From IMG/VR virus record IMGVR_UViG_3300010397_000018, positions 1-48,519 of that record: a DNA stretch of 48,519 nucleotides; one strand, written 5' to 3'. The translations under genes and the position numbers were made by a program. Each line of letters begins with the position of its first letter. Position 1 is the stretch's first letter. The DNA is from a virus. The notes beneath the pieces are model-generated. The model saw only the letters and a program-made list of their open reading frames with translations. It searched no databases and had not been told where the DNA came from. Below are positions 7,882-48,519 of this stretch, in pieces.

Positions 7882-8112
7882 TTACTCAGAAAAAGGATTG
7901 CTGGGCGTCCGTGGATTGGGACGGCTGGCCAGCGCAGCCGCCAATGAGACGCCAGCGGAATGCACACCGCTGACTCGGCGCGGCGAACCACGCCTCCCCG
8001 TGCTCTCACGGCTTACAAATTTGCGAAGGAATCGACCAATCCGCTCCGCCGCGATCCCGCCCGCGAACGAGCCCGCAGCGACGATCCAGACGATTGGCTC
8101 GGGGTAGGTCAT
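7882..8112 (-). CDS. Hypothetical small protein with an N-terminal hydrophobic helix
   Basis: ATGA overlap with the stop of 8109..8576; PIVWIVAAGSFAGGIAA segment. Confidence 0.45.
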   Translation of the reverse strand: MTYPEPIVWIVAAGSFAGGIAAERIGRFLRKFVSRESTGRRGSPRRVSGVHSAGVSLAAALASRPNPRTPSNPFSE

Positions 8113-8576
8113 GGGGCGGTAGCGGCCTCCTGGTGGAGTGGAAGCACCCGCTTGGCGGCAGCCTCAATTTCGGACTCTGGGACTTCGAAATAGTTCGCCA
8201 GTCGGAGCGCATGATCTGCGCGGAGCCGAGGAAGCCCAGCCTCGTAATCGTTAATGTCAGAAGCGGAGATGCCGACCGCTTCTGAAAAGTCTTTCAGCTT
8301 CATCAGATTTTCCGCGCGATGCTCGCGGATCATTTGAGAAAGCGCATTGAGGCCAAGCGGCTTCCCCTCAAGCTGGGCAAGAAGCAGGTAACCCAGCGCG
8401 CCCTCCGACGCACGACGCACGCCGACGCGCCGCCGAATCTTCTCCAGTTGCTCCTTGTAGTGGGCCACGCACTTCCCAGCAAAAAACAGAGGTTCAGAGC
8501 AGGCGCCGCAAAGGCCCTGGTTCACATGCTGGATTTGAAAGAGCCGCTGACGGGAGACAGTTTGAGAATCGGGCAT
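8109..8576 (-). CDS. XRE-family helix-turn-helix transcriptional regulator with an N-terminal Cys-rich region
   Basis: LMKLKDFSEAVGISASDINDYEAGLPRLRADHALRLANYF is a typical HTH_3/XRE domain; N-terminal CGAC...C..H. Confidence 0.75.
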   Translation of the reverse strand: MPDSQTVSRQRLFQIQHVNQGLCGACSEPLFFAGKCVAHYKEQLEKIRRRVGVRRASEGALGYLLLAQLEGKPLGLNALSQMIREHRAENLMKLKDFSEAVGISASDINDYEAGLPRLRADHALRLANYFEVPESEIEAAAKRVLPLHQEAATAP

Positions 8577-10758: not shown

Positions 10759-11169
10759 TTAGAGGAGGTGTTTCCAGGTGAGTCCTCGGCGGATTCCTGA
10801 GATCGTCGCGTGACTGACGCCGAATCGACCAGCGAGGTTGGCGTTCGGCTCGGTGCTGCTTCGGATGAAAATCACATCGGAATCCGTCAGCTTCGCCGTG
10901 CTGCTGTTCTGGCCCTGTTGATGCATCCGCGTGTGTTCCGCCAAGTGCATCACCTGAAGATTCTCGGGCCGGTTGTCGTATTTATCGCCGTTGATGTGGT
11001 GGACGACTTCCTCTCGCAAGAGTCGGCGCCCGAGTTTCTGCTCCATCACCAGCCGGTGCTCGTCCCGCATAATCCCGCCCCGCTTTATCTTTCGGTATTC
11101 AGCCCTCGCGGGCTTGCCCCACTTGGTCAATCGGTGAGGCGGGATTGATTCGGAGACAAGGGAGCCCAT
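10759..11169 (-). CDS. HNH homing endonuclease with a C-terminal HTH-like module
   Basis: VVHHINGDKYDNRPENLQVMHLAEH (HNH_3 signature), followed by AKLTDSDVIFIR...LAGRFGVSHATISGIRRGLTWKH. Confidence 0.85.
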   Translation of the reverse strand: MGSLVSESIPPHRLTKWGKPARAEYRKIKRGGIMRDEHRLVMEQKLGRRLLREEVVHHINGDKYDNRPENLQVMHLAEHTRMHQQGQNSSTAKLTDSDVIFIRSSTEPNANLAGRFGVSHATISGIRRGLTWKHLL

Positions 11170-11178
11170 GGCGGTGGT

Positions 11179-11448
11179 TTATTTGGTGTTGGCGATCGCG
11201 ATGCCCTCGCGGATCTCGTCGTGCAGCTCAGGCGCCAGCTTGAACAACTCACGCTTGAGCTTTGGCGAGAGGTCACGCACGCAGCGCTTCATCACCTCCT
11301 CAATCCACTCGCTGGTGGAGTGCTGCCGAATGAGCCCGAGCTTCACGGCCGCCTGATGCGCCGTAAGGATGCAGGGGTTACGCAACGTAATATTAGTGCG
11401 CCCCTTCGGGGTCTTGAATTTCGGAACTCTGGATTGGGTCTTACTCAT
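11179..11448 (-). CDS. Ribbon-helix-helix DNA-binding protein (first gene of the leftward early operon; Cro-like position)
   Basis: PKGRTNITLRNPCILTAHQAAVKLG...SEWIEEVMKRCVRDL fits a beta-alpha-alpha RHH fold; shares PKxRTNI(T/S)L with the divergent gene 11584..11856. Confidence 0.55.
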   Translation of the reverse strand: MSKTQSRVPKFKTPKGRTNITLRNPCILTAHQAAVKLGLIRQHSTSEWIEEVMKRCVRDLSPKLKRELFKLAPELHDEIREGIAIANTK

Positions 11449-11490
11449 ATTGGCTCGGGGTTGAGGTGGTGTCCGTTTTGTGTTTCATAG

Positions 11491-11505
11491 GTGTATTGCT
11501 TACAC
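11491..11505. promoter_or_regulatory. Operator-like site 1, GTGTATTGCTTACAC
   Basis: GTGTA-N5-TACAC inverted repeat. One of three copies of GTGTAT-NNN-TTACAC, located in the divergent intergenic region. Confidence 0.6.
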
Positions 11506-11566
11506 ATCATTATGGCAAATGAAATCCTTTCGTTTCCGATTTTTCGCTTTTCATCAGATTAATCGT

Positions 11567-11581
11567 GTGTATAAGTTACAC
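11567..11581. promoter_or_regulatory. Operator-like site 2, GTGTATAAGTTACAC (overlaps a TATAAG -10-like hexamer and ends 2 nt before ATG 11584)
   Basis: Same 12 fixed bases as sites 1 and 3; shares the extended ATCGTGTGTAT left flank with site 3. Confidence 0.6.
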
Positions 11582-11583
11582 GC

Positions 11584-11856
11584 ATGACACACCAAAAACG
11601 CGGTCGGAAGACCCCGCACCCGCCGAAGCTTCGAACAAATATCTCCCTGTCTGCTGGCCTGATGAAGGCGGCGACGTTTCTAGGAGAGAAGCTTTTTGGA
11701 AATCGTAATGCATACGTAGAATACGCTTTGCTGAACGATCTCCGCGCCCAAGGCTTATCTGTGGATAAGATAATCGAATTGGCGAGAGGAGAACAAGAAG
11801 AGGCAATCAAAACCGGGGGCGATGAGCAATCAGGAAATACCCCTAAAACGCCGTGA
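11584..11856 (+). CDS. Ribbon-helix-helix DNA-binding protein (repressor-like position upstream of the integrase)
   Basis: PKLRTNISLSAGLMKAATFLGEKLFGNRNAYVEYALLNDL fits the RHH pattern; acidic C-terminal tail. Confidence 0.55.
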   Translation: MTHQKRGRKTPHPPKLRTNISLSAGLMKAATFLGEKLFGNRNAYVEYALLNDLRAQGLSVDKIIELARGEQEEAIKTGGDEQSGNTPKTP

Positions 11857-11950
11857 ATTTTTACCATGTTCAGACTTTATCCTGACCCGCTGGATGCGTC
11901 TATAGGGTGCCCTGCTGCACCGTGATGCGCTGGCCGCAAAGTTGTTCACA

Positions 11951-13066
11951 ATGCCTGAGAAAAAGACCGTTCGTTTCGGGCCGATTTTCTTCGAGGTCCA
12001 GAGGTATGCTGACGGTAGATTTGGCTTCGATTACAAGAATCCAGACAACGACCGGATAAAGGTCCGCCTCCACAGCCAGGATGAAGCATGCGAGCGCGCC
12101 TTGGAGATTCTGAAGGCGGCCAGGGGTGGCACGCTGGACCGGAGCCTAATCGACGATGATCTGTTTTTATCCTTCCTTCGGTGGCGCTCCGAGCAGGCTT
12201 TGGGCGCTGAGATTCCGAAGGTGAAAAAGGAATACATGGACATCAAAAAGCGGGCCGGGCTGGCGCCCCCAACCATCTCGGAGCTTGAAAGCACCCTCCG
12301 GCCGTTTGCGGAACGATTCACGGGCAATATCGCCCACGTAAAACGCGAGCAGGTGGCCGCCTTTTTGGATGAGCGCTCCCCTTCCCCGCGCCGATGGAAT
12401 AACATGCGCAACGCAATCGTCGGGATGTGGCGCTTTGCCCGGCGTGAGGGATACCTGCCAGCGACCCTGACGAGCGTTGAAACCATGGAACTGCGCAAGG
12501 TTTCGCTTACAGTTCACACCTACAGCAAGGAAGAGCTTTTGCGGCTCTTGGCGGTCGTGGAAAAGGAGTGGTTGCCGCTCATTGTCCTAGGTGCCTTCTG
12601 CGGGCTCAGGCCCGAGGAGATTCAGCCGAACCCCCGACACAAGGGCTACAAGCCCGGGCTTCAGTGGCAGAATATAAACTGGAACAAGGGCATCGTGGAT
12701 GTTCCGGCCGGCGTTGCAAAGGATCGGCGCCGCAGATTTGCCCCGCTAACAGATGCCGCGCGCGCGTTTCTGTCCGATTGGAAATCGGAGAAAGGATTCG
12801 TCGTGCCAGCTCGGGCAACCGACAAGCCGCGCGCCCGATGGGTAAAGGATTCCGGGGTTACGTGGCGAAAGGACGCCCTCCGGCACAGCTTCGCGAGCTA
12901 TCGTCTGGCAGTTCGCAAAAACATGCCGGAGCTGACGCTGGAGATGGGCAATTCCGCCGCGATGGTTCATCGTCACTACTTGGACCTAAAGCACGAAGAA
13001 GACGGGGTATCATGGTTCGGTATCCGACCCGAAGAAGTTCCAAAAGTTCCACTGCCTCCCCTCTAA
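11951..13066 (+). CDS. int: Tyrosine recombinase / phage integrase
   Basis: Catalytic signature FCGLRPEE (Arg I), ALRHSFASY (H-x-x-R), MVHRHYLD (Tyr). The ORF opens with TTG at 11942; ATG 11951 (MPEKKT) is preferred. Confidence 0.88.
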   Translation: MPEKKTVRFGPIFFEVQRYADGRFGFDYKNPDNDRIKVRLHSQDEACERALEILKAARGGTLDRSLIDDDLFLSFLRWRSEQALGAEIPKVKKEYMDIKKRAGLAPPTISELESTLRPFAERFTGNIAHVKREQVAAFLDERSPSPRRWNNMRNAIVGMWRFARREGYLPATLTSVETMELRKVSLTVHTYSKEELLRLLAVVEKEWLPLIVLGAFCGLRPEEIQPNPRHKGYKPGLQWQNINWNKGIVDVPAGVAKDRRRRFAPLTDAARAFLSDWKSEKGFVVPARATDKPRARWVKDSGVTWRKDALRHSFASYRLAVRKNMPELTLEMGNSAAMVHRHYLDLKHEEDGVSWFGIRPEEVPKVPLPPL

Positions 13067-13102
13067 AACCCGGTGCCGTGATGTAGCTTACAGTCCTATC
13101 GT

Positions 13103-13117
13103 GTGTATCATTTACAC
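13103..13117. promoter_or_regulatory. Operator-like site 3, GTGTATCATTTACAC
   Basis: Third copy of GTGTAT-NNN-TTACAC, 37 nt after the integrase stop and about 110 nt upstream of lipoprotein gene start 13229. Confidence 0.55.
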
Positions 13118-13228
13118 CAAAAGAGGAATTTTTGGGTGCAACTCCCATCTTTCGTCCCTGTTGTCGTGCCGAAAAGTTCCAAACAGTTCCAAGGGACAAT
13201 CTACACACCCGCAAGTAAACTTCCGCCC

Positions 13229-13735
13229 ATGAAAACCCTCCTCTGCCTGATGCTGATGGCGTGCGCGTGCTGTGGCCAAACGATCAAATGGGAGAACGCT
13301 GTGCCCGATCCTGGCATCTCGTTTGAAAAAAGCTATGAGGCTGGCGGCAAGACCGATGCCATTGGGACAATGGCCGCCATCATTGGCTACCAAGATGCCG
13401 GCTTGCAGTTCATCGGCTCCCAAGTGCTGTGGTATACGAATACAGGCAAGCTCATTAAATCGGATGTCCTCGGCTCGAATGACGGCGTTTGGGTCGTCTT
13501 CGTGAGCCCCGCAATCCTTGTGATACAGGTCACAAATGGAAATGATTCCTATTTCCGAAAGTACGTCCGAAAGGGTGTTTCGGTTGTTTCTAAAGACACG
13601 CCACTAACGGGCGGAGCAGCCGAATACTCTCCATCTAGTGGCACGTTCGACAACTCGGACAAGCTGGGATTTTTTGTGTTTAGTCGGTCGCAGTCCTTGA
13701 AAACTGTGACCGGAATCAAGCGCTACTTGCGCTGA
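13229..13735 (+). CDS. Secreted/lipoprotein moron candidate (168 aa)
   Basis: MKTLLCLMLMACACCGQ signal peptide with a lipobox-like LMAC; visibly AT-richer than its surroundings; next to int on the plus strand. Confidence 0.6.
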   Translation: MKTLLCLMLMACACCGQTIKWENAVPDPGISFEKSYEAGGKTDAIGTMAAIIGYQDAGLQFIGSQVLWYTNTGKLIKSDVLGSNDGVWVVFVSPAILVIQVTNGNDSYFRKYVRKGVSVVSKDTPLTGGAAEYSPSSGTFDNSDKLGFFVFSRSQSLKTVTGIKRYLR

Positions 13736-39814: not shown

Positions 39815-39888
39815 TGGAGCGCCGCCTCAGATTCGAACTGAGATTGCGGGCGTGGAAGGCCCGTGGTCTGCCGTTGACGTAGTGGCGC
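39815..39888 (-). tRNA. tRNA-Gly (anticodon UCC), CCA encoded
   Basis: Hand fold of GCGCCAC-TA-CGTC-AACGGCA-GACC-A-CGGGC-CTTCCAC-GCCCG-CAAT-CTCAG-TTCGAAT-CTGAG-GCGGCGC-T-CCA. Canonical T-loop, U33, A37, U73 discriminator typical of tRNA-Gly; one A6.C67 mismatch. Confidence 0.85.
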
Positions 39889-40209: not shown

Positions 40210-40285
40210 TGGTCGCGCGCGCCGGATTTTAACCAGCGGCCTCTCGGTCCCAGGCCGAGCGCTCTGAACACTGAGCTAGCGCGCG
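40210..40285 (-). tRNA. tRNA-Pro (anticodon UGG), CCA encoded, non-canonical loops
   Basis: CGCGCGC-TA-GCTC-AGTGTTCA-GAGC-G-CTCGG-CCTGGGA-CCGAG-AGGCC-GCTGG-TTAAAAT-CCGGC-GCGCGCG-A-CCA. Perfect 7-bp acceptor stem; C1-G72/A73 and G37 fit Pro identity. However it has C33 instead of U33, A56 in the T-loop, and no GG in the D-loop. Confidence 0.7.
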
Positions 40286-48198: not shown

Positions 48199-48519
48199 TG
48201 CAGATTTTGGAAGGCCGCGCGGCACTTCGCGGTGAAATTTCGGTGTTTGGTTTCGTGGCATTCACGGCACAAAGCCATGACATCCTCGGGCCGCTCAAAG
48301 CCGCGCCGCTCGTACGTGAGGTGGTCAACATCCACAGCGTTTCGCGAGCATACTTGGCATATCCAACGCGCGCGCTTCATGGCTCGGTAGCGGACAGCGG
48401 CCCAATGATTCGTGCGTAGATATTCGGGATACGGGAGGGAGCGGAGCGCGAGAATGATGGTTGCCAGCCCGTGCTCGATATTCACGGCATCCCACGAGTC
48501 GCCATCCCAAAACGGGTCC
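48195..48519 (-). CDS. HNH/zinc-ribbon-type small nuclease-like protein, truncated by the window edge (continues at 124..191 after the wrap)
   Basis: CQVCSRNAVDVDHLTYERRGFERPEDVMALCRECHETKH (CxxC ... H ... CxxCH). The frame stays open to the window end; the track start at 48485 is an internal GTG. Confidence 0.6.
   Translation of the reverse strand, partial: DPFWDGDSWDAVNIEHGLATIILALRSLPYPEYLRTNHWAAVRYRAMKRARWICQVCSRNAVDVDHLTYERRGFERPEDVMALCRECHETKHRNFTAKCRAAFQNLQ
48397..48519. repeat. Terminal direct repeat, copy B (identical to 1..123)
   Basis: See copy A. Confidence 0.95.

Follow-up and report, generated by a model that had tools for sequence, protein, structure and literature searches.

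A divergent pair of small genes encoding probable ribbon-helix-helix proteins, with related operator-like sites between them and beyond the integrase gene, as a candidate lysis-lysogeny switch in an apparently temperate phage

To our knowledge, nearly all the temperate-phage switches that have been dissected come from Proteobacteria or Firmicutes and use helix-turn-helix (HTH) repressors, and no model of phage regulation exists for Verrucomicrobiota. Two small ribbon-helix-helix (RHH) repressors, Mnt and Arc, are transcribed divergently from a short operator-bearing region in the immI region of phage P22. The Arc operator consists of two short inverted boxes bound by two dimers, Arc and Mnt bind different operators, and immI serves secondary immunity through its control of the antirepressor gene ant, so that it is not the primary, int-adjacent switch. 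The RHH protein F55 of the archaeal fusellovirus SSV1 has reportedly been proposed to hold lysogeny by binding early promoters. In lambda the cI mRNA transcribed from PRM is leaderless. Phages P2 and 186 transcribe the repressor gene jointly with int, beyond which lies attP; their first early lytic gene encodes Cox or Apl, a protein that acts as repressor of the lysogenic promoter and also directs excision by binding att repeats spaced 10-11 bp apart (PMC7498355). The RHH protein omega/ParB of pSM19035 binds 7-bp units in mixed orientations (PMC9499535). Here we describe a locus in the virus record IMGVR_UViG_3300010397_000018 of IMG/VR, analysed over its full 48,519 nt (the window). Two divergent genes, which we call L and R, flank a short intergenic region with two copies of the element GTGTATNNNTTACAC (GTGTAT-N3-TTACAC; sites 1 and 2), and a third copy (site 3) lies just beyond the integrase gene that follows R.

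We consider the chances somewhat better than even that L and R constitute a two-repressor lysis/lysogeny switch and that one of the two proteins also acts at attP. Both are most likely distantly related small DNA-binding proteins that form RHH dimers. They would recognise GTGTA-type units of about 7 bp, (n)GTGTA(w), paired about one helical turn apart, with site 1 lying over the candidate leftward promoter and site 2 over the -10 region and start point of the candidate rightward promoter (Table 1). R, co-expressed with the integrase, would be the lysogeny repressor, shutting the early operon at site 1 and limiting its own expression at site 2. L, as the first product of the early operon, would be the counter-repressor and would shut the R-int promoter at site 2. 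Because their recognition strands are near-identical (R-T-N-I-T-L in L and R-T-N-I-S-L in R), the two proteins would probably read the same units and compete for them as CI and Cro do. One of them, most simply L, as with Cox and Apl, may also bind site 3 in attP and influence excision, because site 3 carries the longer ATCGTGTGTAT flank of site 2 and lies between arm-type repeats; less probably, site 3 would loop to the switch or control the downstream gene. The sequence features, their conservation and the synteny are observed directly; the fold, the promoters, every instance of binding and the roles given to each protein are inferred.

The gene order agrees with that of the P2 C/Cox and 186 CI/Apl systems, in that R, int and attP run one way and L with the early genes runs the other. 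As in those phages, related recognition sequences occur at the switch and at att, sites 2 and 3 sharing 18/20 nt, with site 3 in what is probably attP. The proteins differ. Cox and Apl are HTH or winged-helix monomers on direct repeats, whereas here the proteins are probably RHH and the units are inverted; neither P2 C nor 186 CI is related to its partner, whereas L and R share a recognition strand; and the host and phage lineages are unrelated. Homology of the Cox/Apl type was not found when the R-family alignment (A8) and the ten-member L-family alignment (A9) were compared by hhalign with P2 Cox and lambda Xis (at most 0.5% probability), and neither Pfam nor PHROG gave an excisionase match. 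L holds the position of Cro, Cox and Apl at the head of the early operon, which is the position of a second repressor and not of the antirepressor suggested in a preliminary description of this DNA. It is possible, although we hold it doubtful, that one protein, most simply L, is an RHH recombination directionality factor doubling as a switch repressor, the equivalent of Cox or Apl on a different fold. If one protein does direct excision, a new fold would be added to the recombination directionality factors, and two RHH paralogue-like proteins would compete for the same units in a CI/Cro-style bistable switch made entirely of RHH proteins.

Other systems resemble the locus in part. P22 immI shares with it a divergent pair of small repressors over a short operator region, RHH there and probably so here; in this phage, however, the neighbours of the pair are the integrase and, on the opposite side, an HNH endonuclease with early genes, nothing resembling ant was found, and hhalign of A8 and A9 against Arc and Mnt gave at most 2.7% probability. 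As in lambda, two divergent repressors would compete for shared operators over back-to-back promoters, but in lambda the proteins are of the HTH type, the operators have three parts and the pL operon ends with int, and no CI-like peptidase domain is present here. SSV1 F55 differs in belonging to an archaeal virus, in being a single regulator without a divergent partner, and in its promoter type. For pSM19035 omega, one RHH dimer per 7-bp unit in direct or inverted arrays (PMC9499535) matches the flipping of units that we observe among relatives. The omega heptads are contiguous, with a 7-bp period, whereas the units here are 10-11 bp apart; omega serves a plasmid partition/copy-control system and not a phage switch, and hhalign of A8 and A9 against it gave at most 1.4%.

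An exact search of the window for GTGTATNNNTTACAC found three matches, all on the plus strand (11491-11505, 11567-11581 and 13103-13117), with matches in 0/100 dinucleotide-preserving shuffles. Allowing one mismatch in the core GTGTA-N5-TACAC returned the same three sites only, and two mismatches added two more (9566 and 40491), which is chance level. The intergenic region that holds the first two (11449-11583, 135 bp) has a GC content of 40.0% against 60.2% for the window. These two sites are 76 bp apart, centre to centre, and site 2 ends 2 nt ahead of the ATG at 11584 and overlaps a TATAAG hexamer at 11570-11575. The stretch common to sites 2 and 3, ATCGTGTGTAT...TTACAC, is 20 nt long and 90% identical. 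The preliminary description had reported the three copies, their spacing and placement, the AT-richer gap, the common left flank and the PKxRTNI(T/S)L start of both genes, all of which were borne out by the present analysis, and the genome-wide search for further copies that it proposed found none above chance.

The same arrangement recurs in related loci. An L-family gene is divergent from the gene upstream of int in 10/10 loci with enough sequence, and the order R, int and attP-like region on one side with L and early genes on the other is also present in L001, L006, L020, L141, L142 and L143. Among the close relatives (L001, L002, L004 and L005) the half-sites are preserved and the spacers vary: L005 and L002 retain the core of site 1 around another spacer, L001 has ATGTA-N5-TACAC there, and site 2 is identical or almost so. 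In the distant R-family loci L141-L145, whose proteins are 30-44% identical, the same divergent L-R pair is accompanied by GTGTG/GTGTA units that form direct repeats 10-11 bp apart, clustered beside each start codon. Over ten loci the 5-mers GTGT[AG]/[TC]ACAC number 37 per kb between L and R compared with 2.1 elsewhere (about 18-fold), and the units are paired 10-11 bp apart directly upstream of each start codon.

Since the pairs are inverted in this phage and direct in its distant relatives, the real unit is about 7 bp long and GTGTAT-N3-TTACAC is an inverted pair of such units. The motif read at first as a palindromic operator is thus non-random and kept with variable spacers, but its unit is a GTGTA-type element of about 7 bp that occurs in direct or inverted pairs. 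Units also flip in place between relatives, as seen in L001 and L004 for the left unit of site 3 and in L005 for the single unit at 13202; because omega binds 7-bp units in mixed orientations, such flipping fits an RHH fold. Different shared elements are found only in L006 and L020, whose strands differ strongly. Covariation between strand residues and unit sequence is not clear-cut, in that GTGTG units stay though the central Asn is replaced by His in some R relatives.

In the five-locus alignment of the switch region (A6), the TTTTCA-16 nt-TATAAG block is the best conserved non-coding sequence and TTGCC is invariant; the candidate promoters in Table 1 are assigned on these sequences. In nine loci (the window, L001, L004, L005 and L141-L145) the start codon of R is preceded, at a distance of 6-9 nt, by a hexamer TATAAG, TATATT, TATATC or TATGTT, and in the window the ATG at 11584 follows TATAAG after 8 nt. 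This distance fits a leaderless transcript and would explain the absence of a ribosome-binding site. The R mRNA is a candidate leaderless message, in which it recalls that of lambda cI. The unit CACAC at 11588-11592 falls in codons 2-3 of R, and His3 of R (CAC) is invariant though the N-terminal tail is otherwise variable (alignment A2). A comparison of 11000-13400 with Rfam gave nothing relevant.

Site 3 is flanked on either side by a pair of AGTTCCA repeats, and these probably serve as arm-type sites for the integrase and mark attP. The first pair encodes VPKVP within int and is kept in L001, L004 and L005 (alignment A7). At the second pair, the sequence AAAGTTCCAAAC(A/T)GTTCCA is invariant in four loci and is also found in L143, and at both places L006 and L142 have TTTTGGCAC repeats instead. 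The centre of site 3, at 13110, is roughly midway between the inner ends of the clusters (13051 and 13175), so that site 3 would lie within attP and would not be simply an operator of the downstream moron gene, as had been supposed. Its left half is moreover flipped in two relatives: at the corresponding position L005 has GTGTATACTTTCCAC, and L001 and L004 have TATACACACG(A/T)TTTACA(C/T) with the left unit reversed. The match of site 3 to the region upstream of R is better than in 500/500 shuffles. When the 45 nt upstream of R were compared with the interval between the int stop codon and the next gene, a significantly similar segment was found in 6/6 loci, with 0 to 13 of 500 shuffles reaching the score. 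The segment differs by lineage, being AATCGTGTGTAT in the group of the window, TAAAT.TAC...ATGCGTA in L006 and TGTGAATATG.ATA in L020. A lineage-specific element common to the R promoter and to attP, in either orientation, points to a phage-encoded protein acting at both.

The 22-nt block AATTTTTGGGTGCAACTCCCAT beyond site 3 is a candidate attP core or identity segment; neither the block nor the 20-nt candidate core has an exact match in IMG/VR. At the place of the single unit further downstream (site 4 in Table 1), the sequence of L005 is the reverse complement, AATCGTGTGTATA. Site 3 does not resemble a terminator. A site for integration host factor was considered at this position, and a by-eye comparison with WATCAANNNNTTR gave no fit. 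Fragments resembling tRNA 3' ends (T-arm and acceptor strand) follow int, in either orientation, in L006 (4275-4305), L020 (4077-4101) and L142 (5243-5266), and they suggest that these phages probably integrate into tRNA genes, such a fragment being what commonly reveals an attP core. In this phage ARAGORN found no tRNA near int, and the interval resembles the L142 fragment loosely at most.

The N-terminal PK(G/L)RTNI(T/S)L of the two open reading frames (ORFs) is the only segment of L and R that BLASTP aligned. In A8, R reads RTNISL, then SAGLMKAATFLGEKLF, GNRN and AYVEYALLNDL. In A9, L reads RTNITL, then NPCILTAHQAAVKLG and STSEWIEEVM, and the pattern of the family is a strand R-x-N-[IV]-[YT]-x, a Pro, a helix, and a second helix with S-x-S-E-[RW]-I-E. 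Both families conform, at the level of pattern only, to the RHH succession, in which an N-terminal strand of alternating polar and hydrophobic residues is followed by two helices, A and B, with a G-x-(S/T/N) turn between them. In relatives of L the sequence is GRSASDRIEQLI, which is close to what we take to be the GRS-x-NSE signature of Arc and Mnt.

AlphaFold models, made from shallow alignments, place helices at residues 24-38, 43-55 and 60-80 of R, with an extended N-terminus and the strand region as coil, which a monomer would be expected to show (predicted local distance difference test score, pLDDT, 69), and at residues 25-36 and 45-58 of L. With low to moderate confidence, the helices of both models are where an RHH protein would have them. 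A further indication comes from L020, whose integrase is 45% identical and whose R-position gene passes the Pfam RHH_1 model (22.0 bits against a cut-off of 20.5). In hhalign comparisons with this protein A8 reached 75-78% and A9 66% probability, under the usual 90-95% level, and both alignments are in register over the strand and helices A and B. A8 gave 30% against NikR-N and 5-6% against CopG. Six HTH/Xis controls gave at most 0.4%, except for one off-register match of 5.5% to a three-sequence profile. Because the sequence pattern, the positions of the modelled helices and the in-register alignment to the RHH_1-positive protein agree, an RHH fold is likely, though not established, for both proteins; our confidence is good for R and a little lower for L.

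The public Joint Genome Institute (JGI) call of R (P0003, 64 aa) begins at Met27, as does a similarly short call in L005, and leaves out the conserved basic tail and the KLRTNISLS strand (window 11584-11661). The KLRTNISLS block is identical in three relatives, and 15/15 nucleotide differences are synonymous. Purely synonymous variation of this kind argues that the longer ORF, starting at 11584, is real.

Several observations weigh against the two-repressor switch or against parts of it. For the fold, no RHH family in Pfam matched at E <= 1 when L, R, 13 R-family and 10 L-family members were searched (the only exception among the RHH profiles was the L analogue of L020, with RHH_5 at E = 0.13); L and R themselves had no Pfam or PHROG match of any kind, and phmmer and hmmsearch against the PDB, with single sequences and family profiles, returned no RHH chain. 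The model of L is of low confidence (pLDDT 58), a ribbon formed between chains is beyond what these two monomer models could reveal, and the best E was 0.85-1.0 when the R model was compared by Foldseek with the PDB and BFVD. The L and R profiles match each other weakly (25-30% by hhalign). The profile searches for CopG, Arc and MetJ families proposed in the preliminary description were thus without a significant hit. Its RHH pair keeps the support of pattern, helix positions and in-register alignment (66-78%), but no Pfam, PDB or Foldseek match establishes the fold; the structure predictions it called for likewise put the helices in the expected places but at modest scores, with no Foldseek match for R.

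Other points in this group concern the DNA. No promoter was detected here by a strict sigma-70 scan, so that the overlap of operators and promoters is argued from conservation. The conservation of GTGTGTATA(A/T), the most conserved unit, may be partly that of a promoter and not of an operator, because the unit contains a -10-like hexamer. The promoters of P2 and 186 are face-to-face and those here are apparently back-to-back. No lysogen or attB was found, the genome scan having given only relatives at <=32% identity, and attP and its core are therefore deduced from the phage sequence. Lastly, the sequence gives no assignment of protein to site.

Among the other explanations, the one that survives best, although we think it unlikely, is that R is not the immunity repressor but a Xis-like recombination directionality factor that binds site 3 for excision and, at site 2, controls its own R-int promoter, while immunity is provided by L or by the HTH_3 protein encoded in the leftward operon. 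The long flank ATCGTGTGTAT common to sites 2 and 3 and the location of site 3 between arm-type repeats would be as expected for such a factor. R lies directly upstream of int, a frequent position for xis, and in L020 the R-position gene overlaps the int start; however, the same overlap leaves no space for a separate int promoter, and obligate co-expression of an excision factor with Int would hinder integration. Although the phage does have an HTH_3 protein, its gene is internal to the early operon without a promoter region of its own, and L, at the head of the early operon, is hardly the lysogenic repressor, so that no obvious immunity gene is left.

It is improbable, in our judgement, that the element is mainly a promoter for the host RNA polymerase, namely an extended -10 GTGTG-TATAnn for leaderless transcripts, in which case site 3 would be the promoter of the lipoprotein gene, the palindrome would be incidental, and L and R might bind elsewhere or not at all. 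The fixed place of the TATAAG-type hexamer ahead of R in nine loci suits a promoter, but a single -10 element does not require tandem or inverted pairs of units at helical spacing, and the L-proximal units are oppositely oriented relative to their gene. Similarly, site 3 contains TATCAT and its L005 counterpart TATACT, yet reading the sequence upstream of site 3 revealed no -35, the scan found no sigma-70 promoter, and the asymmetric unit at site 3 is flipped in L001, L004 and L143, where it would aim the promoter into int. The left half and flank are better conserved than the right half, as a promoter would explain; against this, L006 and L020 have a different shared sequence though the integrases are related and the genomic relatives are mainly Verrucomicrobiota.

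Least probable is that the motif is an integrase site, with site 3 as the attP core (inverted core-type sites round the crossover) and sites 1 and 2 as secondary Int sites, since, although site 3 is an inverted repeat like core sites and is centred almost midway between the AGTTCCA clusters, arms of 5 bp with a 5-bp spacer would make a short core for a tyrosine recombinase, the repeated element stands apart from the tRNA-like core fragment in L006, L020 and L142, L020 keeps the AGTTCCA arm motif yet has another shared element (the element does not track the arm motif), the flipped left unit in L001 and L004 gives a direct repeat that is incompatible with a core, and it would be unexplained why Int should have two core sites at the promoters of the switch.

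Table 1. Positions of the genes, candidate promoters and repeated elements of the switch and of the probable attP region (window coordinates).
Feature	Position	Strand	Description
L gene, 89 aa	11179..11448	-	ORF; heads leftward early operon
Candidate leftward promoter	-35 TTGCCA 11513-11518; -10 TACACC 11490-11495	-	putative
Site 1 (GTGTATTGCTTACAC)	11491..11505		L-proximal operator candidate between/over candidate leftward promoter
Candidate rightward promoter	11548..11575	+	TTTTCA (11548-11553), 16 nt, TATAAG (11570-11575)
Site 2 region	11562..11592		ATCGTGTGTAT-AAG-TTACAC (11562-11581) and third unit CACAC
R gene, 90 aa	11584..11856	+	ORF; promoter-proximal gene of R-int unit, candidate lysogeny repressor
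Tyrosine integrase	11942..13066	+	PHROG phrog_1 integrase, E = 3.5e-22
AGTTCCA x2 (13036, 13045)	13036..13051	+	in int 3' end; probable P-arm integrase arm-type sites
Site 3 (ATCGTGTGTAT-CAT-TTACAC)	13098..13117		midway between two AGTTCCA pairs, inside probable attP
22-nt block AATTTTTGGGTGCAACTCCCAT	13127..13148	+	identical in window and L005 (alignment A7), flanks diverged
AGTTCCA x2 (13175, 13185)	13175..13191	+	non-coding; probable P' arm integrase arm-type sites
Single unit TACAC, site 4	13202..13206		23 nt upstream of lipoprotein ATG
Secreted/lipoprotein-like gene (MKTLLCLMLMACAC...)	13229..13735	+	ORF downstream of probable attP

The integrase matches Pfam Phage_integrase and Phage_int_SAM_1, in both cases under their cut-offs, and RHSFASYRL and HRHYLDLKH are kept in alignment A1. 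It is separated by 162 non-coding bases from the lipoprotein-like gene, whose product is 31% identical to that of the gene in the same position in L001 and has no Pfam or PHROG match. In L141 (5238-6940) and L143 (3489-4439) genes with a ParB_N domain follow the integrase instead of the lipoprotein gene, so the cargo downstream of attP is variable.

The leftward operon is an early recombination/replication operon. Its order is L, HNH endonuclease, a 436-aa protein, an HTH_3 protein, RecT, exonuclease VIII, sliding clamp and RusA, followed by phosphoadenosine phosphosulfate (PAPS) reductase, a methyltransferase and then primase/helicase across the ends of the contig. The HTH_3 gene (8109-8576, minus strand) encodes a 155-aa protein with a C-terminal Cro/C1-type HTH, which matches Pfam HTH_3 with 33.4 bits and PHROG families of transcriptional regulators and repressors. 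The earlier suggestion of a switch not built on CI/Cro-type HTH proteins therefore stands for the switch itself, where no such gene is present, but not for the phage as a whole.

The first 123 nt of the record (1-123) recur at 48397-48519 as an assembly overlap, which shows that the phage genome is circular and complete, at about 48.4 kb, and the phage appears to be temperate. A comparison with 50,697 deposited phage records found no DNA similarity to known phages. In a genome scan the closest integrase relatives were in Verrucomicrobiota, and the host phylum is therefore probably Verrucomicrobiota.

The L and R families are unannotated and rare. A word-indexed search of 5.8 billion proteins returned one relative of L and three of R, and a full HMMER pass over 1.84 billion clustered representatives brought the R family to 14. 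Scanning IMG/VR with CGTGTGTATNNNTTACA gave at least 120 single chance matches, and neither L nor R nor the integrase is encoded in any fetched locus; no further relatives came from scans with the single integrase or with the R-family alignment, the integrase alignment found one locus, and a metagenome scan added one new locus.

A two-repressor switch with an att-linked site is of a known kind; what is new is probably the use of two unannotated, probably RHH families in a poorly studied phylum. The locus would offer a compact, testable switch in which two proteins of about 90 aa act on some 135 bp of control DNA and on a single additional site in attP, and it defines two protein families that currently lack annotation. 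Its practical value is modest and would lie in better prophage annotation and in small orthogonal repressor/operator pairs.

Most genes in the remainder of the genome are encoded by the minus strand; one of them, of 1287 aa, weakly matches a virion structural protein. Two tRNA genes, tRNA-Gly(TCC) at 39815-39888 and tRNA-Pro(TGG) at 40210-40285, both on the minus strand, adjoin a short island of plus-strand genes at 40.8-42.0 kb, one product of which has a weak PHROG match resembling replication initiator O.

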